A stretch of DNA of 64,000 nucleotides. Origin: Minisyncoccota bacterium. GTDB taxonomy: Bacteria > Patescibacteriota > Minisyncoccia > Phycocordibacterales > PALSA-1337. The stretch lies in the NCBI GenBank assembly GCA_041666915.1, contig JBAYFZ010000001.1:201086-265085 (forward strand), given 5' to 3'. The position numbers were made by a program, and so were the translations under genes. The notes beneath the pieces were generated by a model. It searched no databases, was not told the origin of the DNA, and saw nothing but the letters and a program-made list of their open reading frames with translations. Shown here piece after piece: positions 7,084 through 59,867 of this stretch (positions within the stretch are counted from its first letter, which is position 1; each line of letters starts with the position of its first letter).

Positions 7084-7169
7084 GTCATTCCCGCGAAGGC
7101 GGGAATCCATGAAGACAATTAAAGGAATTTTTTGGTAATATCCTGGATTCCCGCCTTCGCGGGAATGAC
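7084..7169. repeat. Inverted-repeat element, copy 1 (TIR GTCATTCCCGCGAAGGCGGGAATCCA ... TCCTGGATTCCCGCCTTCGCGGGAATGAC)
   Basis: Read directly from the sequence. Each TIR is itself a hairpin (CCCGC-GAAG-GCGGG). The element sits between the valS start and the stop of the Gly/Tyr-rich gene. Confidence 0.85.
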
Positions 7170-7176
7170 GCAAGGA

Positions 7177-7698
7177 TTAGTATCTGTGGCCGTATCCTCC
7201 ATAATAAGTATTCAAATGAGCACTACCTATAGGACCACCGTAGTTATAATAGTTGTATCCACCGTTATAGATTCCAGTACCAAATGGGCCACCATAATAA
7301 GCACTGCCAACAGGACCGCCGTAATTGTAATAATTGTATCCACCATTGTAAATTCCAGTACCATAAGGATTGCCGTAGTAAGAACTACCATAATAAGTAT
7401 TATCATAGCCACCGTAATAATCGTTGTAACCACCATAGTCATATCCACCGTAATATGATCCGTAATAACTAGAGTCATAATAACTTACACTAGAATAATC
7501 ACTGTAGTAACTATCGGAATAGCTTCCATAATAACCACTGTCGTAACTATCGTAACCTCCATCATATCCACCATAATCACTGTAATAACCTCCGTAATCG
7601 TAATATTGAGCCTCTGCTTGGCTAGGAATAGCCATAAACAAGCCAAATATGGCAATAACAATGATTCCGGCTAGGGTGAATTTATTGGAAGATTTCAT
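7177..7698 (-). CDS. Secreted Gly/Tyr/Ser/Asp-rich low-complexity protein
   Basis: The signal peptide is MKSSNKFTLAGIIVIAIFGLFMAIPSQAEA. About 140 aa of YGGY/YYG repeats follow. There is an exact tandem duplication GTGIYNGGYNYYNYGGP(V/I)GSA. Confidence 0.6.
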   Translation of the reverse strand: MKSSNKFTLAGIIVIAIFGLFMAIPSQAEAQYYDYGGYYSDYGGYDGGYDSYDSGYYGSYSDSYYSDYSSVSYYDSSYYGSYYGGYDYGGYNDYYGGYDNTYYGSSYYGNPYGTGIYNGGYNYYNYGGPVGSAYYGGPFGTGIYNGGYNYYNYGGPIGSAHLNTYYGGYGHRY

Positions 7699-7767
7699 AC
7701 AAAAAGTGTACTACTATTTTATAAAATGTCAAGGTTTTTGGATTCTCTAATGGTAAAACCCGACCAA

Positions 7768-7795
7768 GAAAAAACCCCGCTTTCGCGAGGCTTCT
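7768..7795 (-). terminator. Putative terminator downstream of the cold-shock gene
   Basis: On the minus strand the hairpin is CCTCGC-GAAA-GCGGGG, followed by TTTTTTC. The stem has one mismatch. Confidence 0.35.
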
Positions 7796-7829
7796 TCTAT
7801 TCTTATTAAGCCGTTAGGCCTAAAAAGTA

Positions 7830-8030
7830 TTATACGCGCTTTACATCCTGTGCGTTTGGTCCTTTTTGACCGTCAACGACATTGAAAGTAACAGCATCAC
7901 CTACTTTGAGTTCAGCAAAAGTGACACCGGAAAGATCGTTTGAGTGAAAGAAGAGATCTTTTGTCTCACCTTCACGAGCGATGAATCCGAATCCTTTCTC
8001 TGTCAAAGTCTTGATTGTTCCTGATTGCAT
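7830..8030 (-). CDS. Cold-shock protein (CspA family)
   Basis: The 66 aa product contains the RNP-1 motif KGFGFI and FFHSNDL. Confidence 0.9.
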   Translation of the reverse strand: MQSGTIKTLTEKGFGFIAREGETKDLFFHSNDLSGVTFAELKVGDAVTFNVVDGQKGPNAQDVKRV

Positions 8031-8076
8031 GGTTTTTGATTTTAAAATATAAATTGAAGAAGTTCGACTCGTTTCT

Positions 8077-9102
8077 TTGTGTAGACATCATAGCATAGAT
8101 GGTGATATTAACCTAATATGTTTGAGGTTTCTCATCAACTGGCGAATCGGGGCTTATCTTTGTTATACTATTCATATGATTTACACACATTCTTACCGTG
8201 GTATCGTTTGGCTCGATATGGAATCCCCTTCAGATGAAGAAGTTTCCAGTTTAATAAAACGTTATGGACTCCATCCTCTAGTTGGAGAGGAACTCAAGAT
8301 TTCTAGTTCTATAGCCAAGATTGATTTCTTTGATGATTACATCTTTATCGTTCTTACCCTACCAGTCCGCAAGCGTACAAAAAATGGTGGCTATGAGATT
8401 GTAGATCGTGAGATAGATTTTGTCATCGGTAAAAATTTTCTTATTACCTCAAGAGAAGATACTATTGAACAATTGGAGTATTTCGGTAAGATTTTTGATA
8501 CCAATTCTATTCTCAATAAAGATGAAAAGATTGAACACGCCGGTTATCTTTTCTACTATATGGTCAAACGTATATACGCCGGCATGGTTGAAGATTTGAA
8601 AAATATTCAGGATTCACTGGCTTCAGCAGAAAAAGGTATATACCAAGGCGATGAACGCAAAATGGTTGAGGTTTTATCAGCTCTCAGTCATGAACTTATT
8701 GATATCAAGCAAACTGCCAGAATGCATCGTGAAGTTTGGGAGAAAATGGTGGACTATGATGAGAAAAATTTCTTCGGAAAAGACTTCAATTCTTACGTAC
8801 ACGATATTCGCAATGAATTTAACATCATTCATGAACTTATCATAAATACCCATGAACTCTTGGCGGATCTACGCGAGACCAACGATTCCCTTTTAAATGC
8901 CAAGCAAAATGAGACGATCAAAATGTTGACCACTATCACCGTGATCTTCTATCCAGCCACACTCATTGCTTCCATATTCACTATTCCAGCTTTAGGCATC
9001 CCTATTTTGAATAATTCAAATAGTTGGGGTATCCTCATGATCATCTCTATTGTCTGTACCGGCGGTTTTTGGTATCTACTTAAAAAGAAGAACTGGATCT
9101 AG
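8077..9102 (+). CDS. CorA-family divalent cation transporter with non-canonical signature; likely true start at ATG 8218 (MESPSDEEV)
   Basis: It has the CorA N-terminal domain layout and two C-terminal TM helices. The position of the canonical YGMNF motif reads IFTIPALG instead. The upstream extension (MCRHHS...) is likely not translated. Confidence 0.55.
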   Translation: MCRHHSIDGDINLICLRFLINWRIGAYLCYTIHMIYTHSYRGIVWLDMESPSDEEVSSLIKRYGLHPLVGEELKISSSIAKIDFFDDYIFIVLTLPVRKRTKNGGYEIVDREIDFVIGKNFLITSREDTIEQLEYFGKIFDTNSILNKDEKIEHAGYLFYYMVKRIYAGMVEDLKNIQDSLASAEKGIYQGDERKMVEVLSALSHELIDIKQTARMHREVWEKMVDYDEKNFFGKDFNSYVHDIRNEFNIIHELIINTHELLADLRETNDSLLNAKQNETIKMLTTITVIFYPATLIASIFTIPALGIPILNNSNSWGILMIISIVCTGGFWYLLKKKNWI

Positions 9103-9146
9103 TAAAAACCTATGAATTTGATGCATTTCTTCGTTGCTTCGCTCGT

Positions 9147-10625
9147 TTGCTCCATCGCAGTATTAAACTATACAGCTCAGTCGCAAACATCGCTTGCGCC
9201 TCGAACTGCATTCAAATTCATAGGTTTTTGAAAAATAACATGATAAATAACATTCAAATATTTAACACCCTTTCTCGCAAAAAAGAGATTTTCAAGCCTA
9301 TAAACAAAGGCGTAGTCGGAATGTACCACTGTGGACCAACCGTCTATGATCGTATTCACATTGGTAATTTCCGCGCTTTTATAGTTCCAGACATTTTACG
9401 AAGAATGTTTGAATACAACGGTTATGAGGTCAAACAGATCATGAACATTACTGATGTTGGCCATTTGGTCAGTGATGGTGATGAAGGAGAAGATAAAATG
9501 ACAAAAGGTTTGAAGCGTGAAGGCAAACCTATCACCCTAGAAGCAATGTTGGAATTATCTTCTAAATACGCCGACCAGTTTTTGGAAGATTTGAAATCAT
9601 TGAATATAGAGCCGGCTCAAAAATATCCTAGAGCTAGCGAACATATCATTGAAGATATTGAGATAGTCAAACAACTTGAGACAAAAGGTTTCGATTATGC
9701 TCTGGATGATGGTATGTATTTTGATACTGCCAAATTCCCTTCTTATGGCAAGCTCGGAAACATTTCCATTGAAAGCCTCAAGGAAGGTGCTCGCATAACG
9801 ACTAATTCAAACAAACGTAATCCCGCAGATTTCGTCTTATGGAGATTTGACCCGAAGATTGGTTGGGATAGTCCTTGGGGTAAAGGTTTTCCTGGTTGGC
9901 ATATAGAATGTTCGGCAATGTCAGCGAAATATTTGGGACAACCATTTGATATCCATACTGGAGGAATTGATCATATTCCTGTTCACCACAACAATGAAAT
10001 AGCTCAATCTGAAGCGGCTTACGATAAGCCTCTGGCCAATTACTGGATGCACAATGAGTTTCTCATCATTGGCGGAGACAAAATGTCCAAGTCTTTGGGT
10101 AATTATGTAACTTTAGAGACCCTGAAAGAAGAAGCTATCTCACCTCTTGCATATCGTTATTGGTCATTGACTGCACATTATCGTTCACCAGTTAATTTCA
10201 CCTACGAAGCTGTCCGTGGTTCTCAAAATGCCCTCATAAAACTTATGAAGACGATCGTAAGTTATCCAAAAGATGGTCAGATTATTCCTGAATACAAAGA
10301 AAAATTTTTGACTCTTATTAATGATGATTTGAATTTGCCACAAGCTATCGCTCTAGCTTGGAATCTAATCGCTGATTCCAATCAAAAAGATGCTGACAAA
10401 AGAGCAACTTTGATTGATTTTGATAGAGTTTTTGGTCTGAAATTGGATTCTATCCCTGAGACAAAAGAAGAAGTCCCTCCAGAAATACAAGCTTTGGCAG
10501 AAACGCGTGAAGAGGCTCGTAAAGAGAAAGATTGGGTAAAGGCTGATGCCATCCGAAAAGAGATTGAGAATAGGGGCTTTACAGTCAAAGATACGGCTGA
10601 GGGGATTGAAATCGTTAGGATATAG
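9147..10625 (+). CDS. cysS: Cysteinyl-tRNA synthetase; likely start at ATG 9240 (MINNIQIF)
   Basis: MYHCGPTVYDRIHIGNFR contains the HIGH motif, and KMSKSLGN is present. The overall architecture fits CysRS. Confidence 0.9.
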   Translation: MLHRSIKLYSSVANIACASNCIQIHRFLKNNMINNIQIFNTLSRKKEIFKPINKGVVGMYHCGPTVYDRIHIGNFRAFIVPDILRRMFEYNGYEVKQIMNITDVGHLVSDGDEGEDKMTKGLKREGKPITLEAMLELSSKYADQFLEDLKSLNIEPAQKYPRASEHIIEDIEIVKQLETKGFDYALDDGMYFDTAKFPSYGKLGNISIESLKEGARITTNSNKRNPADFVLWRFDPKIGWDSPWGKGFPGWHIECSAMSAKYLGQPFDIHTGGIDHIPVHHNNEIAQSEAAYDKPLANYWMHNEFLIIGGDKMSKSLGNYVTLETLKEEAISPLAYRYWSLTAHYRSPVNFTYEAVRGSQNALIKLMKTIVSYPKDGQIIPEYKEKFLTLINDDLNLPQAIALAWNLIADSNQKDADKRATLIDFDRVFGLKLDSIPETKEEVPPEIQALAETREEARKEKDWVKADAIRKEIENRGFTVKDTAEGIEIVRI

Positions 10626-10632
10626 TCGCTGT

Positions 10633-10747
10633 GTCATTCCCGCGAAGGCGATTTAGCAAAATCGTGTCGAATGGACCGGTGAATCCATGAAGACAAATAA
10701 ATGGATTTTTTGGTAATATCCTGGATTCCCGCCTTCGCGGGAATGAC
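10633..10747. repeat. Inverted-repeat element, copy 2, with a 31-bp nested insertion in the left TIR
   Basis: The left end reads GTCATTCCCGCGAAGGCG-[ATTTAGCAAAATCGTGTCGAATGGACCGGT]-GAATCCATGAAG, and the right TIR is canonical. The element begins 8 bp after the cysS stop. Confidence 0.85.
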
Positions 10748-10753
10748 AACAGA

Positions 10754-10821
10754 ATTTCTTCATTATTTCTTAATAACTTCTTTATCGTTTCTTTAACCTT
10801 TCTTAATCAGGATTTTAACTC
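10754..10821 (+). repeat. Promoter-like repeat, copy A (doubled TTTCTTTAAC unit), directly abutting element copy 2 and upstream of the ORF starting at 10836
   Basis: Sequence identity to 39279-39336 and to the reverse complement of 1486-1560. Confidence 0.5.
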
Positions 10822-10835
10822 GTTTTGATATCGTA

Positions 10836-11132
10836 ATGTCGTACACATTATCATTTATCAAAACAAATATGTCCTTAGAACAAAAAGATCTTGAGTTAAT
10901 AGAAAGTCTAATCTACAAAAATAGTGACGATATAGCAATATCCATAGCTAGAAGCTTTGAACGACTAGAAAAACGTGGCGATGACAGTGAGTCACGCATC
11001 TATTCACGTCTTTCTGAAATAGAAGACCGTATAGAATCCAGTCGACAAGATATGTCGGATACTATTGGTGACATAAAAGAGGAGATACGAGATACCATGA
11101 GGTTCAAAACTCTTGCTGAAGTTAACAATTGA
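10836..11132 (+). CDS. Hypothetical acidic coiled-coil protein
   Basis: The 98 aa ORF has no recognisable motif. It lies downstream of the promoter-like repeat. Confidence 0.4.
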   Translation: MSYTLSFIKTNMSLEQKDLELIESLIYKNSDDIAISIARSFERLEKRGDDSESRIYSRLSEIEDRIESSRQDMSDTIGDIKEEIRDTMRFKTLAEVNN

Positions 11133-11174
11133 AAACCGTGAGCCTCTGTGGTATAAATTACGGCGGAGGTAAAT

Positions 11175-11282
11175 ATGAGTCAAAAATCTAATGATTGTAA
11201 CGGAGCAATTTTTGTCATAGTCATTGGTATTGTAGTTACTCTGGTGTATTTATCACTTTCGAGTTTAAAGGTAACTGGCTAA
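11175..11282 (+). CDS. Small hydrophobic peptide (35 aa), possible membrane toxin-like peptide
   Basis: The sequence is MSQKSNDCNGAIFVIVIGIVVTLVYLSLSSLKVTG. A strong SD (GGAGGT) precedes the ATG with a 7-nt spacer. Twin terminators follow. It is below the ORF-track length cutoff. Confidence 0.35.
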   Translation: MSQKSNDCNGAIFVIVIGIVVTLVYLSLSSLKVTG

Positions 11283-11293
11283 GACAAAATTCA

Positions 11294-11360: not shown

Positions 11361-11382
11361 GTGGGCGCTGATCATTGATTAC

Positions 11383-17098: not shown

Positions 17099-17809
17099 TC
17101 AATCCACATAAGCCTCTACGATACCTATATGATTTGATAAATGTAATTTGTCGGCCAAATGCGGAAACATGGTCCTATTCGAAAGACCAATACACAAATC
17201 ATCTAATTTATTCAAACCCGGATATGGTAATAGAGTATAAACTAGATCACTACCTTGAATATGTACTCCGTTCACAAAAAGCGGTAACTCATATAGTACA
17301 TAATCTGTTAGTCTATCTAATTCCTCTTGGGACATTTTTGAAATACTCTCTACTCGATCACTTCTTCCAGACACTACGATATCTGTCATAAAATCATGAA
17401 ATTCTTTATTATTTACAAATTCGTCTTTTATCGCCTGTAAATTATATTTGTAAATCTCATTCTGAGTTACATCACCCCATCTCACTACTCGAACTTTATT
17501 CCGATCTTCTGATGATAAAGTGGCAATAATTTCTTGGATCTCTTCATTCTTCTTGTCACCAATCTTTGTAGCTTTCCTCAAAGCACGCTTAGGACTTCGC
17601 TTATCCAATACCTCCAAATTAACTGTATGCAACGCATCAGGTATTACGATTAAAACACCATCTTTGGTATTAGCAATAGCCCATTTAATATACTTTTCAA
17701 TGTTATCTTTAAAAAAATATTTATTTCCAAGACTTATACCTAACCATATATTATGACGTTTATCTCTTATTTCTTCTGGAGTTATATTCAAATAAGTATT
17801 AATCCTCAT
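17099..17809 (-). CDS. tRNA-dependent cyclodipeptide synthase (CDPS, AlbC/YvmC family)
   Basis: The 236 aa product has WLGISLGNKYF (compare AlbC LIGISAGNSYF and YvmC LVGISPFNSRF, which hold the catalytic Ser). It also has YVLYELPLF (compare AlbC YVLAEAPLF, Y178/E182). Size and motif spacing fit a CDPS. Confidence 0.7.
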   Translation of the reverse strand: MRINTYLNITPEEIRDKRHNIWLGISLGNKYFFKDNIEKYIKWAIANTKDGVLIVIPDALHTVNLEVLDKRSPKRALRKATKIGDKKNEEIQEIIATLSSEDRNKVRVVRWGDVTQNEIYKYNLQAIKDEFVNNKEFHDFMTDIVVSGRSDRVESISKMSQEELDRLTDYVLYELPLFVNGVHIQGSDLVYTLLPYPGLNKLDDLCIGLSNRTMFPHLADKLHLSNHIGIVEAYVD

Positions 17810-24675: not shown

Positions 24676-26073
24676 ATGCCCACATATTTTGTTTACTGCC
24701 GCAAATCTACCGAAGCCGAGGATAGGCAGATTTTATCAATTGATTCTCAGATCAATGAACTCAAACAGCATGCCATAAAGAAAGGAATCAAAATTGTAGC
24801 TGTTCTGACCGAGGCCAAATCAGCCAAGGCACCGGGACGTCCGGTGTTTAATTCTCTAATGGAACGGTTGTACCGTGGTGAAGCTGATGGAATCCTGTGC
24901 TGGAAATTGGACCGTCTTGCTCGTAACCCTGTTGATGGTGGTGCTATCATCTGGGCCATGAAGGAACATGGGGTAAAAATTATTACCCCTTTACAGACAT
25001 ACGGACAATCCGAAGACAATGTCGTCTGGATGTACCTGGAATTTGGCATGGCACAGAAATACGTTGATGACTTGAGCCGAACCGTAAAACGGGGTTTGCG
25101 GGCGAAAGCGGAATCTGGTTGGTTTCCAAGCGTTACCCCGCCAGGATACATGAATTGTGAGAACGACGAGGGACGCAATGTTATCGCCAAGGATCCCAAA
25201 CGATTTGATATTATCCGAAAGTGCTGGGACTTAATGCTTACTGGAAAGTACACACCTCCAGAAATCAGAGAAATTGCCAATACCGCATGGAGGTATACAA
25301 CAAATCATGGAAATCCTCTGGGGCGTAGCACCATTTACAACATCTTTTCAAATCCCTTTTACCATGGCACTTATGAATATCCAAGAGGAAGTGATAACTG
25401 GCACACTGGTCGGCATACCCCTATGATAACAGAGGAAGAATTTGATACGGTCCAACACATTTTATCACGATCTCGCCATATGCCACGAAACCGCAAGGTG
25501 TTTGCCTTCACTGGAATCATCCGGTGCGGTGGATGCCAAGGCGCTGTGACAGCAGAGGAAAAGCATCAGATTATATGCCCAGTCTGTAAATTGAAGTTCG
25601 CTTACCGCTCCAAAGAGCAGTGTCCACGATGCCAGACAGCTATCGCAAACATGGTAAAACCAGTCCACCTCACTTACACCTACTACCACTGTACCAAATC
25701 TTCCAATCCCGCCTGTACCGAGCTCGGAGTTGAGCGAAAAGAATTGGAACGTCAGATCATTCGCCACCTTGAAGGTGTGCATCTTCCCGATTTTCACAAC
25801 CACTGGGTTAACACCTGTTTTGGACGTTTGAGCACAAAACCGGATACCACCAGCATGTTGGCAGTCATTACCCAATCATTCCCCAATAGCAGTCCAGATG
25901 TTCAACGAGAAATTGTTACATCAATATTTTCAGCAATAGTTCTGAAGGATAGGGAGATTGGCGTTTCGCTCAAAATTCCCTTTTCATTCCCTAACAAGGC
26001 TGAGGTGCCCACCCCGCTTGACCAAAAATCCTTTACTCAAAAGACGTTGCAGGAGCACATGTCCAGATCGTGA
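24676..26073 (+). mobile_element. Large serine recombinase (phage-type serine integrase/transposase)
   Basis: The N-terminal resolvase domain is YFVYCRKSTEAEDRQ...LDRLARN. A recombinase domain and a Cys-rich zinc ribbon (CGGCQG...CPVCK...CPRC) follow. Local GC is about 47-50% against about 33-35% around it. Confidence 0.8.
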
Positions 26074-26468: not shown

Positions 26469-26536
26469 ACATGAAAAAAATGGCTTAACAAAAGCCCAGT
26501 TACGAACATCAAATATCCAAGAACTGTATCAGTGTG

Positions 26537-26607
26537 CTGGGGGACAGGGACTCGAACCCCGATAATCAGGACCAAAACCTGATGTCCTACCATTAGACGA
26601 TCCCCCA
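26537..26607 (-). tRNA. tRNA-Gln (anticodon TTG)
   Basis: The cloverleaf was folded by hand: acceptor UGGGGGA/UCCCCCA, D stem GUCU/GGAC, anticodon stem UCAGG/CCUGA with loop UUUUGGU, and T arm CGGGG-UUCGAGU-CCCUG. CCA is not encoded. Confidence 0.8.
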
Positions 26608-35787: not shown

Positions 35788-35930
35788 GTCATTCCCGCGA
35801 AGGCGATTTAGTAAAATCATGTCGTATGGACCGGTGAATCCAGGATTACTACGAGATAATAGTTTGTTATAATTTATTTGAAGACAGATTTTGTGGTGAC
35901 ATCCTGGATTCCCGCCTTCGCGGGAATGAC
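35788..35930. repeat. Inverted-repeat element, copy 3, with the same 31-bp nested insertion variant as copy 2
   Basis: The left end reads GTCATTCCCGCGAAGGCG-[ATTTAGTAAAATCATGTCGTATGGACCGGT]-GAATCCAGGAT, and the right TIR is canonical. It ends 8 bp before the stop of the carboxypeptidase gene. Confidence 0.85.
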
Positions 35931-35938: not shown

Positions 35939-36901
35939 TTATTCCGAAATCTTCGCCAACAACTTAACTACATCCCCATCTCTCGCATTACTTCCCAAAA
36001 CGATGACGGCATAAACATCTTTTTTATCACCCATCTCAAACAACATTGCACCAGTTTGATCCGCTTCATCTGTATAACCATTTTTACCACCTAAATAATT
36101 TGACCAACTTAAAAAATGTGCTGGATTCGTCCAAGTATGTGAACGCATAACTTTTGTCTTTGTTTCTGTAATCGCCATTATTTCCGGTTCATTGATTCGT
36201 ATCCAATCTAGTATGACTGCAATATCATTTACCGTTGATCTACTACTAGCCGACAAACCAGAAGGTTCGTAGAATGTAGTCCTATACGCACCTATAGATT
36301 GAACAAAATCATTCATAGTTTTAATAAATTTCACACGACCGTAACTTTTGGCCAGAGCTTCAGCCGCATCATTGGAAGAATCCATGAGGAGTGGGTAGGA
36401 CAAATCACCAGCCCTAAATGTTTCGCCAATTTTAAATTGAGCAGTATTACCGTAAGTGTTGATTATTTCTCTTGTAATCTGAACCTTTGTCTCACCGTCA
36501 ATCAATCTTTTGGCAACAACAGCGGTAACCAATTTCGTAAGTGAAGCGATAGGTAAAAGCTTGTTGGGATTGCTTTCTGCAATAACTTTTCCTGTTTTTA
36601 GATCTTTTACCATATAAGCATCTGCTGAAATGGTATTTATAGAGCCATTTGGTAATGAAAGCGTCGCTGCTGACATCAAACCTTCTTCTTCACTAGCTGT
36701 ATAACGGACTGTACGTTTCAAGCCAGAGATAGAAGTCCCATCTATGGGTTGAGATACAATAGAATCGGCAAGAAACGATAGATTAATATTTGCTAGTTTG
36801 GGTATAACCGATACAACAAACAATCTTCCTACAAAGGCAATCAGAATACCACAAGCAACAGCAGTTATACCTCCAAAAACTACATAAAAGAAATGCTTCA
36901 T
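35939..36901 (-). CDS. Serine-type D-Ala-D-Ala carboxypeptidase (PBP5/6-like, peptidase S11)
   Basis: SxxK is ASLTKL, an SxN-like motif is present, and the KTG-like motif is KNGYT. There is an N-terminal TM. Confidence 0.7.
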   Translation of the reverse strand: MKHFFYVVFGGITAVACGILIAFVGRLFVVSVIPKLANINLSFLADSIVSQPIDGTSISGLKRTVRYTASEEEGLMSAATLSLPNGSINTISADAYMVKDLKTGKVIAESNPNKLLPIASLTKLVTAVVAKRLIDGETKVQITREIINTYGNTAQFKIGETFRAGDLSYPLLMDSSNDAAEALAKSYGRVKFIKTMNDFVQSIGAYRTTFYEPSGLSASSRSTVNDIAVILDWIRINEPEIMAITETKTKVMRSHTWTNPAHFLSWSNYLGGKNGYTDEADQTGAMLFEMGDKKDVYAVIVLGSNARDGDVVKLLAKISE

Positions 36902-37823: not shown

Positions 37824-37942
37824 GTCATTCCCGCGAAGGCGGGAATCCAGGATTATTACGAGCGGAGAGTCTGTTAAATTATTTTAAAATATATGCTATT
37901 TATTGTGGTTATATCCTGGATTCCCGCCTTCGCGGGAATGAC
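37824..37942. repeat. Inverted-repeat element, copy 4
   Basis: Canonical TIRs flank an AT-rich spacer. It ends 7 bp before the serS stop. Confidence 0.85.
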
Positions 37943-40480: not shown

Positions 40481-42847
40481 ATGACACACATGAAATTACT
40501 CATTGTGGAATCCCCTTCAAAATCAAAGACCATCTCCAAATATCTTGGGGACTGTTTTGTTGTCCGTGCTTCAGTAGGACATGTTAGAGATCTACCAAAA
40601 TCTAGCAAAAAAGCTATAGATATAGAAGGTGGTTTCATTCCTCATTATGAAGTTGTAGCAAAAAAAGAAGATGTCATCGCCGACATCACCATGCAAGCCG
40701 AAAAAGCCAATGAGATCATACTCGCAACCGACCCCGACCGTGAAGGAGAAGCTATTGCTTGGCACATAGCTGAAGTCTTGAAAGACCGCCTAGGTGCAAA
40801 AATAGCAAAGAAAATGAGTCGTGTCACCTATCATGAAATCACAAAAGAAGCCGTCCTAGAGGCCCTAGAACACCCAAGAGAGATAGATCAGCACCTTCGT
40901 GAGGCTCAGGAGGCTCGTCGTGTCCTAGATCGTATTGTAGGTTACGACCTATCTGGTCTCGTCTGGAAAAAAGTTCGCTACGGACTTTCTGCTGGTCGTG
41001 TCCAATCCCCAGCTCTACGTATCATAATGGAACGCGAACGTGAGATTCGTGCTTTCAAACCAGAAACATATTGGGCTATAGCCGGACAATGGAAAACTCC
41101 TATTGGAGAAAAACTTTCTTTGACTTGCGTAGAAGAACCACGTGACAAAAAACAAGTTGACACCATCCTAGAAACTGCCAAAAAAGAAAAATGGCATATC
41201 GTAGATATAGAAGAATCTGAACAAAAGAGATCTCCTCGTGCCCCATTCATCACTTCTACTCTCCAACAAGCCGCCAGTTCACGCCTAGGATTTTCTCCTT
41301 CTAGAACTATGGGTATTGCCCAGAAACTTTATGAGTCTGGTTACATTACTTATATGCGTACAGATTCTACAAACCTAGGTAAACAAGCCTTGGAGCAAAT
41401 AGGTAAAGTTGTAGAAAAACAATACGGTAAAGACTATCTCTCATTCCGTACTTACAATGCAAAGAGTAAGAATGCCCAAGAAGCTCACGAAGCTATCCGT
41501 CCTTCTCATTTTGATAAAGAAAATGCTGGCCACAATGACGAGCAAAAGAAACTTTATCGTCTCATCTGGCAAAGAGCCGTCTCCTCACAGATGGCGGATG
41601 CTCGCATGGCACGAACAAAAATAATTGCAAATGTAAATGTTGGCACAATACCAAATTTTGAAGCCAATGGTTCAAGAGTTTTGTTTGATGGCTGGCTCAA
41701 AGCTGATCCAGAATCAAATGGTGAAGAAACGACCTTACCAAAATGTAGTAAAGATGAAAATCTAGATCTCATCTCTATAGATTCAGAAGAAAAACAGACC
41801 CAGCCACCTCCTAGATACACCGAAGCTGGCCTTATCAAAGAATTGGAAAAGCGAGGTATCGGTCGCCCCTCTACTTACGCTTCTATTTGTAAGACCATAG
41901 AAGACCGTGGTTATGTTTCCAAAGAAAATAAAGCTTTGAGACCAACCGATACTGGTGATGTTGTCTCATCATTCTTGGAAGAATATTTCCCTTCTTATAT
42001 TAGCGATTCGTTCACAGCTGAAATGGAAGATCATCTGGATGAGATTGCAAATGGAACCAGAACCTATGAAAAAACTCTTTCTGATTTCTACAAACCATTC
42101 CACAAAGAAGTTTTGTCAAAAGAAAAATTAGCAAAAGCAACCAACCTCGGTCTTTCAGATCCAAAATTCAAATGTCCAAAATGTGGTACATCACCTATGG
42201 AGATAAAATTAGGTAAGAATGGCAAATTCTTGTCTTGTACACGCTATCCAGATTGCGAGGGTGCTCTCACCTTAGATGGTACCGAATTCAAAAGTGACAC
42301 ACCTATCGGCAATGATCCTACGACCGGTTTACCTATTTACGTATTGAATGGCAGATTTGGTCCTTATGTTCAACTTGGTGCAAGGTTACCTAAAGTTAAG
42401 AAAACTAAAAAACCAAGAGTAAAGAAAATCAAAAAAGATAAATCTTCTTCAGAAGCAAAATCACCCGCAAATGATTCGTCTGCAATCTCGACTGAAACTG
42501 AAGTAACCAAGACTCCAGCCGAAATAATTAAGCCTACCGAAGAAGCACCTGCACCAGTAGCACCAAAACCAAAGATGGCTTCTATTCCAAAATACATGGA
42601 TCCTTCCAAGGTCACGGTTGCTGACGCTCTTAAATTTTTGAGTCTACCTAGAACTCTCGGCATAGATCCAAAAACAGGCAAAGATGTTGTAGCTTCGGCT
42701 GGACGTTTTGGTCCTTATATAGTTTCTGATGGCAATTACAGAACAATCAAAACTCCTGATATTGTTTACGATATTACCTTGGAGAGAGCATTGGAGATGC
42801 TTGCGGTACCAAAGATGGTGAGAGGAAAAAGGAAAATTACTAATTAA
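40481..42847 (+). CDS. topA: DNA topoisomerase I with a Lys-rich linker and C-terminal GRFGPY repeats; likely start MKLLIVESPSK at 40490
   Basis: The Toprim motif LLIVESPSKSKTISKYLG, a catalytic Tyr region, Zn-ribbon Cys pairs and GRFGPY repeats are all present. Confidence 0.9.
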   Translation: MTHMKLLIVESPSKSKTISKYLGDCFVVRASVGHVRDLPKSSKKAIDIEGGFIPHYEVVAKKEDVIADITMQAEKANEIILATDPDREGEAIAWHIAEVLKDRLGAKIAKKMSRVTYHEITKEAVLEALEHPREIDQHLREAQEARRVLDRIVGYDLSGLVWKKVRYGLSAGRVQSPALRIIMEREREIRAFKPETYWAIAGQWKTPIGEKLSLTCVEEPRDKKQVDTILETAKKEKWHIVDIEESEQKRSPRAPFITSTLQQAASSRLGFSPSRTMGIAQKLYESGYITYMRTDSTNLGKQALEQIGKVVEKQYGKDYLSFRTYNAKSKNAQEAHEAIRPSHFDKENAGHNDEQKKLYRLIWQRAVSSQMADARMARTKIIANVNVGTIPNFEANGSRVLFDGWLKADPESNGEETTLPKCSKDENLDLISIDSEEKQTQPPPRYTEAGLIKELEKRGIGRPSTYASICKTIEDRGYVSKENKALRPTDTGDVVSSFLEEYFPSYISDSFTAEMEDHLDEIANGTRTYEKTLSDFYKPFHKEVLSKEKLAKATNLGLSDPKFKCPKCGTSPMEIKLGKNGKFLSCTRYPDCEGALTLDGTEFKSDTPIGNDPTTGLPIYVLNGRFGPYVQLGARLPKVKKTKKPRVKKIKKDKSSSEAKSPANDSSAISTETEVTKTPAEIIKPTEEAPAPVAPKPKMASIPKYMDPSKVTVADALKFLSLPRTLGIDPKTGKDVVASAGRFGPYIVSDGNYRTIKTPDIVYDITLERALEMLAVPKMVRGKRKITN

Positions 42848-42856: not shown

Positions 42857-42990
42857 GTCATTCCCACGCCTCCTGTGTCATTCCCGCGAAGGCGGGAATC
42901 CATGTTTACCACAAACGGTCTCGTATTATCTTCAAATACTAAAAACATTATCTCGTAATAATCCTGGATTCCCGCCTTCGCGGGAATGAC
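42857..42990. repeat. Inverted-repeat element, copy 5, with an extra truncated TIR fragment (GTCATTCCCACGCC) at its left end
   Basis: Read directly. It lies between convergent topA and parB, and the parB stop is at 42998. Confidence 0.85.
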
Positions 42991-51319: not shown

Positions 51320-51324
51320 CTACG

Positions 51325-53978: not shown

Positions 53979-56066
53979 TTACTTCTTTTTCTTGATTATT
54001 GCAATACCAAATTTCTCCTCCAAAACGAACAATTCATCTCGTATTAGAGCCGCGGTTTCAAAATCAAGATTTTTGACTGCTTCAGCCATTTGCTCCTCCT
54101 TTTGCTTAAAAAGTAACTTCGGATTGGTCTTACCCAATTCTTCATCTATAAGGATCAACTCATGTACAGCTTTTTCATGTTCAGTCCTCAAATGATCCGT
54201 AATATCATGAATATTTTTTATAATAGTCTTAGGAGTGATGTTATGTTTGGTATTATAAGCAACCTGAATAGCGCGTCTACGATCGGTCTCTTTGATTGCC
54301 CTATCTATTGAACCAGTGACATTGTCTGCATAGAGAATAACTTTACCAGCAGAATTACGAGCTGCTCTACCGATAGTTTGAATAAGAGAAGTCTCTGAAC
54401 GCAAAAAACCTTCTTTATCTGCGTCAAGAATACCTATAAGAGAAACTTCTGGCAGATCCAATCCTTCACGAAGCAAGTTAACCCCAACCAAACATTCATA
54501 TTTTCCCCTTCTAAATTCTGTAAGAATAGTAATTCTTTCCATAGTTTTTATATCACTATGTAAATAAGTAGTTTTTATACCCTTCTCTTTCAAAAATTCA
54601 GAAAGATCCTCTGCCATTTTCTTTGTAAGCGTAGTAGCAAGGACACGATCACCTTTTTTTATTGTCTTTTCCGTTTCATTTATAAAATCAAAAATCTGAC
54701 CTTTATATTTTCCGCTTTCGCGAATAGGTCTGATTTCAACTTCTGGGTCTATAAGTCCAGTTGGTCTGATAACTTGTTCTACTATTTGCTTACTAGTCTC
54801 ATGCTCATAATCAGAAGGTGTAGCAGAAGTGTAGATCATCGGACCAACCCTTTCCAAAAATTCTGCAAAATTAAGCGGGCGATTGTCTTTGGCAGAAGGT
54901 AGACGAAAACCGTGTTCAACAAGGGTTTCCTTACGAGAAGCATCACCAGCGAACATGCCTCGGATTTGTGGTATAGCCACATGTGACTCATCAATAATAG
55001 TCAAAAAATCTGGTACTTTTTTAGCATTTGGACCAGCCCCGAGCGTAATTGATGGAAAATATGAGAGTAAAGTATCTGGCGGTTCGCCTGGCATTTTGCC
55101 AGAAAAATGACGAGAATAATTTTCAATACCATTCGTATATCCAACTTCACGAATCATAGAAAGATCGTATTTGACTCTGCGCTTCAATCTTTCTACTTCC
55201 AAAGTCTTACCTTCCTTCTCCATAACTTTCAATCTATCAGCCAATTCGGCCTGAATAGTTTTGACGGCTTTTTCACTCTGTTCAGGACTACTGATAAAAT
55301 GTTTGGCTGGAAAAATGAAGATGGTGCGACCCTCGTCCCGATGTTCAACATCAGAATCACGAACAGCTCTAGAAACAGGGTCCAATTCTACAATATGACT
55401 GATAACGCCACCATCAAATTCTATTCTGAAAATAGTCTTTTCATTGACCGGCATAATTTCTAAAGTATTTCCAAGTGCACGAAATTGACCAGAATTGATA
55501 TCTGCGTTTGTACGAACAAAATGAATATCTATAAGTTTACGGATAAGTTCTGAACGAGACAATTCCATACCTACTTTTATCTTCAAATTTACTTTTTCAT
55601 ATTCTTCTGGACTTCCCAGACCGTAAATACAAGAAACCGATGCAACTATGATCACATCTTTTCTTGTAAGCAAAGCTTGTGTGGAGGCGTGGCGAAGTCT
55701 CTCAATCTCTTCGTTGATCATCGCTTCTTTTTCTATATAAGTATCAGTTGCTGGCATATACGCCTCTGGCTGATAGTAGTCATAATAAGAGACGAAATAA
55801 TGAACAGCGTTATTTGGAAAAAATTCTTTGTATTCTTGAGCGAGTTGAGCAGCCAAAGTCTTGTTATGAGCAATAACTAGAGTAGGTTTACCATAAGAAG
55901 CAATAACATTGGCCATGGTAAAAGTCTTACCTGAACCGGTAACACCGAGCAGGGTTTGCCTATCAAAAGACTTCTCCAAGCCCTCTATAAGGCCTTTTAT
56001 AGCCTTTGGCTGGTCTCCAGCGGGTTTGAATGGAGTAGCTAGCTTGAATGGTGATTTACCTGACAT
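53979..56066 (-). CDS. uvrB: Excinuclease ABC subunit B
   Basis: GVTGSGKTF is present, together with the helicase motifs, beta-hairpin region and C-terminal UvrB/UvrC interaction helix. The length is 695 aa. Confidence 0.9.
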   Translation of the reverse strand: MSGKSPFKLATPFKPAGDQPKAIKGLIEGLEKSFDRQTLLGVTGSGKTFTMANVIASYGKPTLVIAHNKTLAAQLAQEYKEFFPNNAVHYFVSYYDYYQPEAYMPATDTYIEKEAMINEEIERLRHASTQALLTRKDVIIVASVSCIYGLGSPEEYEKVNLKIKVGMELSRSELIRKLIDIHFVRTNADINSGQFRALGNTLEIMPVNEKTIFRIEFDGGVISHIVELDPVSRAVRDSDVEHRDEGRTIFIFPAKHFISSPEQSEKAVKTIQAELADRLKVMEKEGKTLEVERLKRRVKYDLSMIREVGYTNGIENYSRHFSGKMPGEPPDTLLSYFPSITLGAGPNAKKVPDFLTIIDESHVAIPQIRGMFAGDASRKETLVEHGFRLPSAKDNRPLNFAEFLERVGPMIYTSATPSDYEHETSKQIVEQVIRPTGLIDPEVEIRPIRESGKYKGQIFDFINETEKTIKKGDRVLATTLTKKMAEDLSEFLKEKGIKTTYLHSDIKTMERITILTEFRRGKYECLVGVNLLREGLDLPEVSLIGILDADKEGFLRSETSLIQTIGRAARNSAGKVILYADNVTGSIDRAIKETDRRRAIQVAYNTKHNITPKTIIKNIHDITDHLRTEHEKAVHELILIDEELGKTNPKLLFKQKEEQMAEAVKNLDFETAALIRDELFVLEEKFGIAIIKKKK

Positions 56067-56120
56067 ATTCTCACAATAACATCAAAATCGGGTTATGACC
56101 ACATATCAACATGGCCCCTA

Positions 56121-57218
56121 TTATTTAATGTACTTAGAAACATTCGCCACCATTCCTGATATTGCCAAAGTGATAATAAGCGCAGTTCCTCCGTGACTGA
56201 CGAATAACAACGGAACTCCTGATAATGGTATAAGTCCTATCATAGCCGAAATATTCATGAAAGATTCTGTAATAATGAGTACACCTATACCCATGACCAT
56301 GAGCCCACCGAAAACATCTGGTGACCTATTCCCTATTCTGAAAATACTAGCAATCAAAAGTAAATACAAACCAATAAGAGCAATACTACCTAGAAAACCG
56401 AATTCTTCAGCTGTTACAGCAAAAATGGAGTCATCGGTCGGTTGAGGTAAATAACCGAACTTTTGAATACTTTGACCAAAACCTCTTCCAGTCAATTGTC
56501 CTGAACCTATCGCAATCAAAGATTGATTGATCTGATAACCAGAACCTTGAGTATCTGAACCGCGATTCAAAAATGTCTTGACTCTATCTAGAGCGTATGG
56601 ACGAATCAAGACAACTCCACCAACCATTATGCCCATAAGGACCATTATAAGAATAATTTGTCTAAACCGTATACCAGCTATAAAAAGCATCGCAAGTCCA
56701 GTGGTTGCAATGATGACCAAAGTATCTGTATCTCTCTGAATCAATAAGAGTGTACCTAGCACAGCCATAATGACTAAATAAGGTAGAGTTCCAAATTTGA
56801 AACCTTCAATCTTATCCTTTATAAAATAAATCCAAGCCGCCATATAGATAATAAAAGCAATCTTCAACAATTCTGATGGTTGAAAAGATAATGGGCCGAT
56901 GGCAAGCCAACGCGAAGCCCCATTGAAATGAATAGTCAAACTAGGAATAAAAAGAAGTAGGTTAACTAAAATCGCTCCAATAAGTATAAAAAGTGCTGAT
57001 TTGCGTAACCAAGAATAATGAATTTTGGAAAAAACAAGAAAAGCGATAATGCCGAGGATTAGACTTATAGTTTGTTTAATCGCAACAGTTTCAAAAGAAG
57101 CACCATCTTGTGCCAAAAGTCCCATTGAGACAGATAGAAAAACGACAAAACCAGCCAACGTCAATGTGCTAACGGAGATGAGAAAAAAACGGTCAATTTT
57201 TGAAAAGAATGAAATCAT
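56121..57218 (-). CDS. SEDS-family peptidoglycan glycosyltransferase (FtsW/RodA)
   Basis: It is a 10-TM protein with the SEDS pattern. Confidence 0.75.
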   Translation of the reverse strand: MISFFSKIDRFFLISVSTLTLAGFVVFLSVSMGLLAQDGASFETVAIKQTISLILGIIAFLVFSKIHYSWLRKSALFILIGAILVNLLLFIPSLTIHFNGASRWLAIGPLSFQPSELLKIAFIIYMAAWIYFIKDKIEGFKFGTLPYLVIMAVLGTLLLIQRDTDTLVIIATTGLAMLFIAGIRFRQIILIMVLMGIMVGGVVLIRPYALDRVKTFLNRGSDTQGSGYQINQSLIAIGSGQLTGRGFGQSIQKFGYLPQPTDDSIFAVTAEEFGFLGSIALIGLYLLLIASIFRIGNRSPDVFGGLMVMGIGVLIITESFMNISAMIGLIPLSGVPLLFVSHGGTALIITLAISGMVANVSKYIK

Positions 57219-57245
57219 TTTTATAAAATAAAAATCTAACCAAAA

Positions 57246-57779
57246 TTACTCTTGTTGTGCCTTTTTGAAATTTTCTATCTCAGCTTTGACTTGTCCATAT
57301 TCTGGCAGATCTTCAATCTTTGAAATACCCATATGAGACAAAAGAGCCAAGGTTGGTTTGTAGAGAAAACTACGAGCGTCTACGGGATTATCTACACGTT
57401 CCACAAGTCCTCTGATGAGAAGGTTTCGCAAAATAAATTGCGAATTGACACCACGTATATAATCTATATCTGCGCGAGAAATAGGTCCTTGATACAAAAT
57501 GATTGAAAGTGTTTCCAAACCAGCTTTACCCAAATCACGGGTCAGTTCTTCTTTTGTAATATCTTCTATCAAAGATGAAAGCTCCTTGGCTGTTCCAAGC
57601 ATCACTTCTTCATCATCACGAACCAAAGAAAGTCCACGACCCTTCAGGTTTTGCTCTAATTGATCCAACCCTTGAACGATCGCAGAATTATCAACCTTCA
57701 ATAAAGATGCCAACTTTTTTATAGATATTGGTTCCGCTTTCCAAAAAAGTAAGGCTTCAATTTTTTGTGATAATTCCAT
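57246..57779 (-). CDS. scpB: Segregation and condensation protein B
   Basis: IEALLFWKAEPISIKKLASLL and the tandem winged-helix pattern are present. Confidence 0.8.
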   Translation of the reverse strand: MELSQKIEALLFWKAEPISIKKLASLLKVDNSAIVQGLDQLEQNLKGRGLSLVRDDEEVMLGTAKELSSLIEDITKEELTRDLGKAGLETLSIILYQGPISRADIDYIRGVNSQFILRNLLIRGLVERVDNPVDARSFLYKPTLALLSHMGISKIEDLPEYGQVKAEIENFKKAQQE

Positions 57780-57823
57780 GGGATTATTGTAACATTTCTT
57801 TTGTCATTTTCGCTTTTTTTGTT

Positions 57824-57941
57824 GTCATTCCCGCGAAGGCGGGAATCCAGGATTATTACAAGATAACATCTATTTAATATTTAAATATAATACGAGATTG
57901 TCTGTGGTTATACACTGGATTCCCGCCTTCGCGGGAATGAC
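57824..57941. repeat. Inverted-repeat element, copy 6 (between scpB start and scpA stop)
   Basis: Canonical TIRs are present. A partial TTGTCATTTTCGC lies just upstream at 57802. Confidence 0.85.
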
Positions 57942-57946
57942 ACATC

Positions 57947-58678
57947 TTAGTATCTCGGCACCCCAACCTCTTTCGTCTCCATCTGAATATCGCCGAAGGT
58001 CTTCTCTTGACTAACATGTACTATCCCTTGTTTGACCAATTCAAGCATGGCAAGAAAACTAACGATGACATTCACACGATTTTCCTTGTGTTCTTTGGTA
58101 AATTCCTTGAAACTCATACGGAGATGACTGGTAATACGAGTCGTGAGAGTCCCTATCATATCTTCAAGACTTATAACTTTTTTAATCAAAACTTTTGGTG
58201 CATTCTCCTTCTTTGGTAAACGGTTGATAAGGTCCTTCAATGAATACAAAGCTTTTTCTAAGGTAAATTCTGGTTCTGGTGTAAAAACTGGGATGATAGG
58301 TTTAGATTGTGATGGTGAAAAGATAACTTGCTCACCAAAAAGTTTGCTTACATTTAAGCTAGCATCTTTAATTCTCTTGTAAATCTTCAAGCGCGTCTCA
58401 AGATCGTGGATATCTACTTGTTCTTCTTGGGTCAAAGCCAATTCTGGAAGTAATGATTTTGATTTGATGAGGAGTAACGTTGAAGCAACCAAAATAAAGT
58501 GAGCTGACTCACCTATTTCTACATTTCCCATGTCTCTCACATGCAAAATAAAATCATCCGTGACTTTCGCCAAAGAAATATCACTAATAAAAAGTTTACG
58601 TTTTTCTATAAGATCCAACAATAGATCCAGAGGACCTTCAAATGATTGTGTTTTTATAGTAAACGACATTTTAAACAC
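57947..58678 (-). CDS. scpA: Segregation and condensation protein A
   Basis: FEGPLDLLLDLIEKRKLFISDISLAKVTDDF matches ScpA. Confidence 0.8.
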   Translation of the reverse strand: MFKMSFTIKTQSFEGPLDLLLDLIEKRKLFISDISLAKVTDDFILHVRDMGNVEIGESAHFILVASTLLLIKSKSLLPELALTQEEQVDIHDLETRLKIYKRIKDASLNVSKLFGEQVIFSPSQSKPIIPVFTPEPEFTLEKALYSLKDLINRLPKKENAPKVLIKKVISLEDMIGTLTTRITSHLRMSFKEFTKEHKENRVNVIVSFLAMLELVKQGIVHVSQEKTFGDIQMETKEVGVPRY

Positions 58679-58686
58679 TAGGACTA

Positions 58687-59634
58687 TTACAAGACTCCTA
58701 TCTTAGCTTTTACATCCAAAAGCTTTTTTCCAGCTACTTCATTGGCTTTCAAACTTCCCTTTTTCAATACTTCAATAATAAAGTCTTGATTCTTGGCCAA
58801 TTCTTCGCGCTTTTCTCGGAGAGGTTTGATGAAAGCATCAATATCTTCTATCAAAGATTCTTTCAAGATCTTGTACTTGCCTGAGTTTTTTGCATAAAAA
58901 TCTTTTAATTCGGAATCGGTTTTGAAAAGTTTGTGAATAGCATAGACATTTTCTGGAATACCTGCACCAGAATCAGTCACAATACTCATGACAGCCTTTG
59001 TGATCTCCTCACGAGTAGCAAAAAGTGGAATTGTATTGTTATAACTCTTGGACATTTTGCGACCATCAATACCTGGGACTGTAGCAACATTTTCCAAAAT
59101 AAGAGATTCTGGTAATTTGAAAGTCTCTCCGAAGATATGATTGAATTTCTCTGCGATATCGCGGGCATACTCTATATGTTGTTTCTGATCCTGTCCTACT
59201 GGCACAACATCTGTACCATAAAGCAAAATATCGGCAGCCATAAGTACTGGATAATTGAAAGTTCCTACATTGATCTCTTTGTTTTTAGCCTCAGCGTCTT
59301 TGAAAGCATGTGCACGCATGAGGTATGGCATTGTTACTATTGTGTCAAAAATCCAAGCGAGCTCGGTATGAGCCGAGACGTCTGATTGTTTGAAGATTGT
59401 AGTAGTTTCAGGATTAAGCCCTATAGCCAAATAATCAATAACAAGATCCGTAATAAACTTCTCCATTTTTGATCTATCTTGAATAAAATTCAAAGCGTGA
59501 TAATTAGCAAGAAAGATAAAACAATCATAGTTATTTGATTTTTGTAAATCGACAAACTGTTTCATTGCTCCAAAATAATTACCAATATGTGGTCGTCCAG
59601 TTGGTTGTACACCAGAAAGTATTATTTTTTTCAT
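58687..59634 (-). CDS. trpS: Tryptophanyl-tRNA synthetase
   Basis: SGVQPTGRPHIGNYFGA carries the HIGH motif, and KMSKS is present. Confidence 0.9.
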   Translation of the reverse strand: MKKIILSGVQPTGRPHIGNYFGAMKQFVDLQKSNNYDCFIFLANYHALNFIQDRSKMEKFITDLVIDYLAIGLNPETTTIFKQSDVSAHTELAWIFDTIVTMPYLMRAHAFKDAEAKNKEINVGTFNYPVLMAADILLYGTDVVPVGQDQKQHIEYARDIAEKFNHIFGETFKLPESLILENVATVPGIDGRKMSKSYNNTIPLFATREEITKAVMSIVTDSGAGIPENVYAIHKLFKTDSELKDFYAKNSGKYKILKESLIEDIDAFIKPLREKREELAKNQDFIIEVLKKGSLKANEVAGKKLLDVKAKIGVL

Positions 59635-59730
59635 AGACTGATTATAACAAATAAGGTCAGTGGTGCACAGTCTCGGAAGAGTCCTGCCATATTCTTTTCA
59701 TGAATCCGAGTATTTCTCCAACTTTTTGTT

Positions 59731-59867
59731 GTCATTCCCGCGAAGGCGGGAATCCAGGATATAACCACTAAATACAGATATCAAAAAACATAGTTCAGTT
59801 ATTTAAATCACTTTATAAAACTATTATCTCGTAATAATCCTGGATTCCCGCCTTCGCGGGAATGACA
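59731..59867. repeat. Inverted-repeat element, copy 7 (between trpS start and dnaJ stop)
   Basis: Canonical TIRs are present. It ends 3 bp before the dnaJ stop codon. Confidence 0.85.

Follow-up and report, generated by a model that had tools for sequence, protein, structure and literature searches.

What are the short inverted repeats that stand directly behind genes in a genome of the Patescibacteria, and how did they come to be there? The question is raised by a stretch of 64,000 nucleotides of contig JBAYFZ010000001.1 (GenBank assembly GCA_041666915.1, positions 201,086 to 265,085), referred to here as the window. A sequence-only reading of the window had described seven dispersed elements with terminal inverted repeats (TIRs), likened to miniature inverted-repeat transposable elements (MITEs), at named intergenic positions. 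All seven were found there, by comparing pattern matches with shuffled sequence and by inspection of the sequence. With a probability of about 0.7, they are non-autonomous doublets of the Neisseria Transformation Sequence (NTS), similar to single units of the Neisseria intergenic mosaic elements (NIMEs), to paired repetitive extragenic palindromic (REP) sequences known as REPINs, or to MITEs, and were recently gained in a Candidatus Paceibacterota genome.

Identity of the repeat

The NTS, CGTCATTCCCGCGMAVGCGGGAATCYRG, and a wider class of Ssn-related motifs (SRM) were defined by Chenal et al. (Nat Commun 2025; PMC11893778). Those authors allow one mismatch to the strict NTS, and the SRM pattern is HGTCWYN(0-2)YYVSBRHN(0-5)WNVSBRGN(0-2)RNCYNB. 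In the window the degenerate SRM pattern is matched by all 12 intact element ends and by no other sequence. The strict consensus is matched exactly at 7143-7170 on the minus strand; the other 11 ends differ at position 1 only, with T for C. Judged by these matches, the element ends are the NTS / SRM and not a TIR private to one genome. What had been described as a MITE-like TIR is a repeat that was already known and that is present in many phyla.

The NTS contains the older dRS3 repeat, ATTCCC-N8-GGGAAT, and its hairpin is bound by SsnA, a 94-aa GIY-YIG protein, as single-stranded DNA only and on one strand only; the RNA form of the hairpin is not bound (PMC11893778). The enzyme cuts a few nucleotides upstream of the hairpin, and binding and cleavage have been demonstrated with the enzymes of N. 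meningitidis, N. elongata, N. wadsworthii and Wolbachia. Motifs adjoin 71% of ssnA homologues, and the NTS-ssnA-NTS layout resembles an insertion sequence. A cognate ssn gene (single-domain GIY-YIG, cd10448) is present in 81% of the genomes with more than 200 SRM, and in Neisseria Ssn lowers the integration of transforming DNA that bears the NTS (PMC11893778).

In the window the unit reads (T/C)GTCATTCCCGCGAAGGCGGGAATCCAG and folds locally into a hairpin of -8.9 kcal/mol as DNA. The GAAG loop is as had been described, and the stem, given before as CCCGC/GCGGG, is slightly longer, with 8 bp (ATTCCCGC/GCGGGAAT). The hairpin takes its orientation from the non-palindromic flanks GTC (5') and CC (3'), which are 81-97% conserved across the fetched copies. 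The stem covaries when 150 distinct variants of the 27-mer, all from other genomes, are compared: pair 5-20 has 39 compensatory against 11 broken cases, pair 4-21 has 20 against 5, and pair 8-17 has 17 against 8. A literature search with peptide translations of the repeat gave no match.

Seven copies of one family

The elements are 86-143 bp long, as predicted (85-145 bp), all intergenic, and their ends are perfect inverted repeats of 27-34 bp, for which about 29 bp had been suggested. A 30-mer, GTCATTCCCGCGAAGGCGGGAATCCAGGAT, has 12 matches in the window with three or fewer mismatches, against 0 expected from 100 dinucleotide-preserving shuffles, and its 18-nt core has 12 exact matches. Altogether the 64 kb contain 12 intact and 2 interrupted copies of the NTS, where 0.00-0.01 would be expected by chance. 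No more copies were found in the window, either with up to seven errors allowed or with the published degenerate motif, and none in the approximately 18 kb of the same contig that flank the window on both sides. These flanks, and the Pfam tables used throughout, were taken from the ENA metagenome contig ERZ27249449:k141_1421082 (450,810 bp), so that window and flanks together cover about 82 kb. No Rfam family matches the elements, the only Rfam matches being four tRNAs.

The interiors are AT-rich, as had been noted. They had also been said to differ between copies; the alignment of the seven instead resolves them into one oriented family in which two copies, those starting at 59731 and 42857, are inverted. 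End 1 consists of the NTS followed by GGATTATTACGAGATAA..., and End 2 of ...TTGTGGTTATATCC followed by the reverse complement of the NTS. The core between the two NTS is 32-82 nt long, with a short spacer common to the copies at 7084 and 10633. Conservation continues for 3-4 nt past the GTC, as TGT or TGTT on the left and ACA or AACA on the right. A further motif, TTTTTGTT, was thought usual ahead of the left repeat and is found there in four of the seven copies.

The left NTS of the copies at 10633 and 35788 is interrupted by a 30-nt insert, ATTTAGCAAAATCGTGTCGAATGGACCGGT, and for this reason both ends were missed by the pattern search. The insert occupies the same position in both, in the 3' half of the stem, and has 3 differences between them; neither the window nor any fetched locus of another genome contains a further copy of it. 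The interrupted End 1 is followed by the short spacer in the copy at 10633 and by the long spacer in that at 35788. One interrupted end joined to two different spacers indicates that the family is mosaic.

A probable recent gain in this lineage

Proteins encoded in the window have identical or at least 90% identical NCBI entries named Candidatus Paceibacterota bacterium. With SerS as the query, 80 syntenic relatives (SerS 56-85% identical) were identified among metagenome contigs, and in these the gene order parB-topA-dprA-serS-p287-(S11)-dus is strongly conserved. An NTS-like sequence is present near serS in 3 of these and absent from 77, whereas the window has three elements in the matching stretch. 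The gap after serS is estimated at a median of about 12 nt in the relatives and is 174 nt here. Because the NTS is missing from 77 of the 80 relatives and their serS gap is short, the doublet family is, to judge from synteny, a recent gain in this lineage and not an old conserved feature of the operon. Together with the shared oriented interior, the different gene contexts and the presence of both orientations, its absence from these relatives bears out the view that this is a dispersed, copy-related family rather than a set of classical terminators.

In a number of the more distant relatives, serS is followed by inserts of other kinds that also fold strongly, or by ordinary terminators. Such varied inserts at one site suggest that the strip past stop codons has repeatedly been settled by, or is tolerant of, elements of this sort. 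In the closest relative (L126, SerS 85% identical), different palindromes are present at both sites orthologous to the copies at 37824 and 35788, at 5742-5847 and 7850-8050. One of them, which begins at the stop codon of serS, is an inverted repeat of (GGGACTA)n heptamers. The other consists of two GGCACCCCC-TTTTCCAAA-GGGGG hairpins at a distance of 111 nt, a family that recurs at 8557-8618 in the same locus and in L175.

Contigs that encode identical DnaJ or Fic proteins either represent the same place or are broken at the repeat. One such contig (L283, Logan contig SRR6484324_193794) ends inside an NTS, which makes up its last 24 nt, 4 nt past the dnaJ stop codon. Breaks of short-read assemblies at the NTS may be the reason why most ssn genes sit on contigs of less than 3 kb.

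Distribution in other genomes and viruses

In a scan of one genome per species, the exact 26-mer TCATTCCCGCGAAGGCGGGAATCCAG was found in the genomes of at least 120 species, with G+C contents of 33 to 73%. The hosts include Zixibacteria, Planctomycetota, Nitrospirota, Dehalococcoidia, Patescibacteria, Gemmatimonadota, a Rickettsia endosymbiont, and many alpha-, beta-, gamma- and deltaproteobacteria. The same 26-mer is present in 76 viral contigs. Across genomes the conserved part is about 27 nt and the flanks are not conserved. Inverted pairs with their 5' ends outward and spacers of up to 150 nt, as in the window, number 91 elsewhere, compared with 29 inverted pairs of the opposite geometry, 13 direct pairs and 160 single copies. 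Spacers also cluster at 306-339 nt, and these belong to gene-containing units.

Truncated 5' halves of the NTS were also seen, in one to three tandem copies on the same strand upstream of the full hairpin, at 36 of the 394 NTS (9%) from other genomes and viral contigs. The half repeat is (C/T)GTCATTCCCGC(G) followed by 7-10 nt and recurs every 18-24 nt (mode 21); only 10 halves are downstream. Examples are in loci L115 (~7440-7510), L272 (~5090-5165), L250 (~80-150), L044, L018 (5764-5812) and L078 (394-444), and the half repeat at 42857 in the window, which together with its full NTS spans 42857-42903, is of the same kind. Tandem half copies were not found in Chenal et al. (2025).

Spurious long open reading frames (ORFs) run through the NTS in five of the fetched loci (L010, L015, L066, L016 and L101), giving the peptides VIPAKAGIQ and WIPAFAGMT, and the peptide SFPRRRES lies upstream of Ssn in L097. 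All three strings are common in hypothetical proteins in the databases. One NTS doublet was met on a 61.6 kb contig labelled MAG: Klebsiella pneumoniae (L001, CAMAPQ010000003.1); its base composition, with 40% G+C in the fetched stretch, suggests that the contig is in the wrong bin.

A candidate partner gene

Beside the NTS, tblastn detected an ORF of about 96 aa with a GIY-YIG domain (Pfam PF01541) at 4 of the 120 genome loci and 6 of the 76 viral loci. Two inverted NTS enclose this ssn gene in 7 of the 10, forming units of 360-380 bp, and in two of the four genome loci with ssn only one end of the unit is present. Three loci fetched around a further Ssn protein (L284, L285 and L290) likewise contain an NTS-ssn-NTS unit, of 361 bp. 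In the viral contig IMGVR_UViG_2851252389_000001 the unit (7786-8164) stands between the genes for the large terminase (8189-9523) and the portal protein (6604-7764), where it fills the gap of the phage packaging module.

The Ssn family is very large: a cutoff of E <= 1e-10 yields at least 7942 clusters, of which nearly all are 96-97 aa long and most are on very short contigs. A search of NCBIfam with Ssn returned no family, and one of the PDB only a weak UPF0213 match. An all-against-all BLASTP of the ORFs within 600 nt of the motif at the 120 loci revealed no dominant neighbour family; the ssn genes beside the NTS surfaced through the motif search and tblastn only. The autonomous partner that a MITE family would lead one to expect thus has a candidate in other genomes and in phage, with ends identical to those of the doublets, and was not encountered in the 82 kb examined here.

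Another small GIY-YIG ORF, of about 86-101 aa and 41% identical to the Ssn query, was observed at 3779-4097 in a relative with SerS 75% identical (L127). It is situated between topA and dprA and is bounded by 30-nt inverted repeats unrelated to the NTS; the window has no gene at that place.

Origin of the doublets

Taken together, these findings point to the doublets being gene-less derivatives of the NTS-ssn-NTS unit of about 370 bp, in which a short AT-rich core would replace the gene. The family would have entered the Candidatus Paceibacterota lineage recently and then multiplied, its copies being made or kept with an Ssn encoded elsewhere in the genome. Such an Ssn would act on single-stranded DNA, as it arises during replication or as incoming transforming DNA. 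Copies would survive only in the small neutral strip past stop codons of a very compact genome. The extension of the inverted repeat by 3-4 nt may mark the position of the Ssn nick. The published oligonucleotide lengths, as we interpret them, place the cut of SsnA about 3 nt upstream of the 28-nt NTS, in agreement with this extension. It is also possible that the copies mark DNA for cleavage by Ssn during natural transformation, as in Neisseria. Genes for DprA and for a type IV pilin-like protein are present in the window, so that a Neisseria-like handling of incoming single-stranded DNA is conceivable.

Several points weigh against this account. Neither ssn nor any other GIY-YIG gene is present in the window or its 18 kb of flanks, and no gene of the REP-associated tyrosine transposase (RAYT), HUH/Y1 or IS110 type was found among the annotated or scanned genes of the window. 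A target-site duplication, for which the sequence-only reading had proposed looking, is absent: the flanks of the seven copies contain no direct repeat, just the inverted repeat continued as TGT(T) ... (A)ACA. Movement of the doublets is deduced and was not seen, and we know of no demonstration of transposition by Ssn. One identical Ssn protein (P0084), examined for varied contexts as a sign of movement, occurs in 24 contigs from many samples and in all 24, enclosed in a 361-bp NTS-ssn-NTS unit, is at the same cytochrome b / Rieske locus (L284-L293, for example 2629-2989 in L284), which indicates a fixed insertion in a respiratory operon and not a jumping one. Because Ssn cuts only one strand orientation in vitro, a simple excision of an inverted doublet by two cuts in a single strand does not follow. 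Finally, folding predictions suggest that the long stem of 31-34 bp, preferred in single strands, would hide the individual NTS hairpins.

A bolder form of the proposal can be put forward only tentatively, at rather less than even chances. The NTS-ssn-NTS unit would then be the smallest known autonomous mobile element, its 'transposase' a 97-aa GIY-YIG nuclease, carried between phyla by phage. The doublets in the window would be its MITEs, the boundaries TGTT|GTCATT ... AATGAC|AACA its nick sites, and the half repeats the footprints of copying.

Positions of the copies in the window

The names given earlier to the neighbouring genes agree with the Pfam tables. The first doublet, at 7084-7169 (86 bp), has its left NTS, a CCAT variant, at 7084-7110 (+) and its right NTS at 7143-7169 (-). 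It is 7 nt past the stop codon of a 173-aa gene (7177-7698, -) and, on its other side, 21 nt before the start of a 737-aa tRNA-synthetase gene (4849-7062, -; Pfam tRNA-synt_1). The second, at 10633-10747 (115 bp), begins 7 nt past the cysS stop codon (10625); the 30-nt insert breaks its left NTS at 10651-10680 and the right NTS is at 10721-10747 (-). At 35788-35930 (143 bp) the insert occupies 35806-35835 and the right NTS 35904-35930 (-), 8 nt past the stop codon of an S11 peptidase gene (35939-36901, -). The doublet at 37824-37942 (119 bp) has its NTS at 37824-37850 (+) and 37916-37942 (-) and is 7 nt past the stop codon of serS (37950).

The fifth copy, at 42857-42990 (134 bp), is one of the two inverted with respect to the majority and the only one between convergent genes, topA (stop codon at 42847) and parB (42998), from which it is separated by 9 and 7 nt. 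Its full NTS are at 42877-42903 (+) and 42964-42990 (-), and its 5' end is a truncated half NTS of 12 nt, at 42857-42868, which starts 20 nt ahead of the full one. The doublet at 57824-57941 (118 bp), with NTS at 57824-57850 (+) and 57915-57941 (-), is 5 nt past the scpA stop codon (57947). The last, at 59731-59866 (136 bp), is again inverted with respect to the majority, has its NTS at 59731-59757 (+) and 59840-59866 (-), and is 4 nt past the dnaJ stop codon (59871).

Two other features of the window were observed. A large serine recombinase (Resolvase, Recombinase and zinc ribbon) is encoded at 24676-26073 (+), 460 nt from a tRNA-Gln gene (26536-26607), and the G+C content at 24-28 kb is 0.42-0.44, compared with about 0.37 elsewhere; this stretch may be the edge of an integrated element. 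The predicted protein at 17099-17809 (-) matches cyclodipeptide synthase PF16715 with E = 1.4e-20.

Placement past stop codons and alternative explanations

One end of every copy is near a stop codon, as had been reported, although the distances are 4-9 nt and not 3-8. The six copies other than that between topA and parB have co-directional neighbours, and all six are within 8 nt of a stop codon. This proximity is not random: under a model of uniform landing in pre-insertion gaps of 28-128 nt it has a probability of about 6e-6. The flank opposite the stop codon reads AACAAAAA, in the sense of the mRNA, in four copies regardless of the orientation of the element, and is therefore a property of the site and not of the element. 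In other genomes, where the genes were called crudely, a distance of 12 nt or less to a gene end was seen for only 5 of 218 NTS copies. Since the repeat is not tied to stop codons elsewhere, the placement here may reflect selection in a compact genome rather than the insertion preference proposed in the sequence-only reading.

Placement of this kind would also be expected if the elements were retained mainly for a role in RNA, as a stem past the stop codon in operon transcripts. Such a stem could keep 3' exonucleases from the upstream cistron, be cut by RNase III between cistrons or hold back ribosomes at termination. The stabilisation of mRNA 3' ends raised in the sequence-only reading may be among such effects. 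Effects at the RNA level have been reported for the REP sequences of E. coli and the Correia elements of Neisseria. A whole element as a single strand forms one perfect stem of 31-34 bp, and as RNA a 31-bp stem has a free energy of -63.6 kcal/mol with z = -9.7. The six copies between co-directional genes and the non-random distance to stop codons fit this explanation, as do the other strongly folding palindromes that some relatives have at the same site after serS. One copy is just 21 nt from the next start codon, so that read-through transcription is required there. Most relatives, with a median gap of about 12 nt, have no structure after serS, however, and the hairpin is thus not a conserved requirement of these operons. 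The possession of one specific 27-mer by unrelated phyla fits recognition by a protein rather than stability of RNA, SsnA does not bind the RNA form (PMC11893778), and the repeat is not tied to stop codons in other genomes. A role in RNA as the main reason for retention is accordingly improbable, and an RNA-level effect is likely to be a side effect of the elements.

Somewhat less probable again is that the elements are recombination sites, either as targets of a site-specific recombinase or as patches of homology for exchange with incoming DNA, as has been hypothesised for NIMEs. There is a precedent in dRS3 as the target of a Piv-like transposase of Neisseria filamentous phages, and the ends of the elements contain the dRS3 core, an integration target and the building block of NIMEs in Neisseria. 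The mosaic copies, with the same interrupted end on two spacers, the 30-nt insert at an identical position of the NTS in two copies, and the tandem truncated halves upstream of full NTS in many genomes could all be products of recombination. Yet no IS110/Piv-type gene is present in the window, where the sole recombinase, the large serine recombinase by the tRNA gene, is 9.7 kb from the nearest element. The flanks are housekeeping genes in conserved synteny and not genes for variable surface proteins.

It is very unlikely that the elements are rho-independent terminators, or DNA-uptake signals with the mere appearance of repeats. In favour are the GC-rich hairpins directly downstream of genes and the placement of inverted DNA-uptake sequences of Neisseria in terminators. 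The sequence contradicts this reading: on the transcribed strand none of the hairpins is followed by a T-run, where the sequence-only reading had noted the lack of a canonical U-tract for most of the adjacent genes, and what follows is AACAAAAA or similar. A terminator scan reports none of the seven elements, so that none is called terminator-like; six copies are inside apparent operons, and the density is only about 1 NTS per 6 kb.

Three other identities were considered and rejected. A species-specific DNA-uptake sequence is ruled out by the presence of the 27-mer in many phyla, and a CRISPR repeat by the arrangement of the copies in inverted pairs instead of as spaced direct repeats. The attC sites of integrons are imperfect palindromes with extrahelical bases, found right after cassette ORFs; the stems in the window are perfect, the flanks are housekeeping genes in conserved synteny, no intI is present and the sequence is that of the NTS.

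Significance

The repeat itself, the nuclease that is its partner and the breadth of its distribution have been known since 2025. The doublet-with-core architecture in Neisseria has been known since 2000, when it was reportedly set out by Parkhill as the dRS3-RS-dRS3 organization of NIMEs. New here are the Paceibacterota host, the very regular single-unit form, the tight placement past stop codons and the evidence of recent gain. The tandem half repeats upstream of 9% of the NTS and the NTS-ssn-NTS unit in a phage packaging module may also be new.

The NTS doublets of the window are few, clean and well delimited. They belong to a reduced genome of the Candidate Phyla Radiation (CPR), have a single architecture and are lacking in close relatives. 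They therefore offer a good natural test case for the question left by the 2025 Ssn paper: whether the nuclease propagates the hairpins, as an insertion sequence would its MITEs, or merely uses them. An architecture of the NIME type, once considered specific to Neisseria, extends to the Patescibacteria, in which DNA uptake is thought to be central to the lifestyle. For annotation, the repeat accounts for the spurious small ORFs with VIPAKAGIQ and WIPAFAGMT, for assembly breaks past these genes and for the long perfect stems after stop codons.

Comparison with known systems

Like classical MITEs, such as the Correia elements of Neisseria, the elements in the window are short, non-coding and multi-copy, with terminal inverted repeats, and are co-transcribed with their neighbours into RNA with long stems. 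They differ from them in having no target-site duplication, in that the ends are themselves hairpins, and in that the candidate autonomous partner is a 97-aa nuclease and not a DDE transposase.

There are clear similarities to the REP/REPIN sequences and RAYT. Both systems have pairs of a short hairpin repeat, in inverted orientation, scattered through intergenic DNA; both include a single-copy nuclease gene with the repeats on either side, and in both the hairpin is presumed to be recognised as single-stranded DNA. REPs are species-specific, in contrast to the NTS, which is nearly identical across phyla. The partner of the NTS is a GIY-YIG nuclease, whereas RAYT is an HUH tyrosine transposase (IS200/IS605-like Y1), and the window has no RAYT. 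Both systems have been discussed as domesticated elements (PMC11893778).

The NIMEs consist of inverted 20-bp dRS3 flanking a 50-150 bp repeat of lower G+C, and isolated dRS3-RS-dRS3 units exist (Bentley 2007, PMC1797815). They form long arrays near genes for variable surface proteins and, as of 2007, were considered restricted to Neisseria (PMC1797815). The elements in the window resemble them in having ATTCCCGCGAAGGCGGGAAT at both ends, inverted around an AT-rich core of 32-82 nt, and in their mosaic parts. They are different in being isolated single units beside housekeeping genes, without arrays and in an unrelated phylum.

The closest comparison is with the NTS/SRM and Ssn system (PMC11893778). 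The 27-28 nt sequence, the hairpin and the flanks that give it orientation are alike, as are the multi-copy, intergenic occurrence across phyla and the NTS-ssn-NTS arrangement in fetched loci. The window differs in that no ssn was found in the roughly 82 kb examined and in its host, Candidatus Paceibacterota (CPR), a group not discussed in that work. It differs too in the form of its copies, which are only discrete doublets with a shared oriented core, each placed 4-9 nt past a stop codon.

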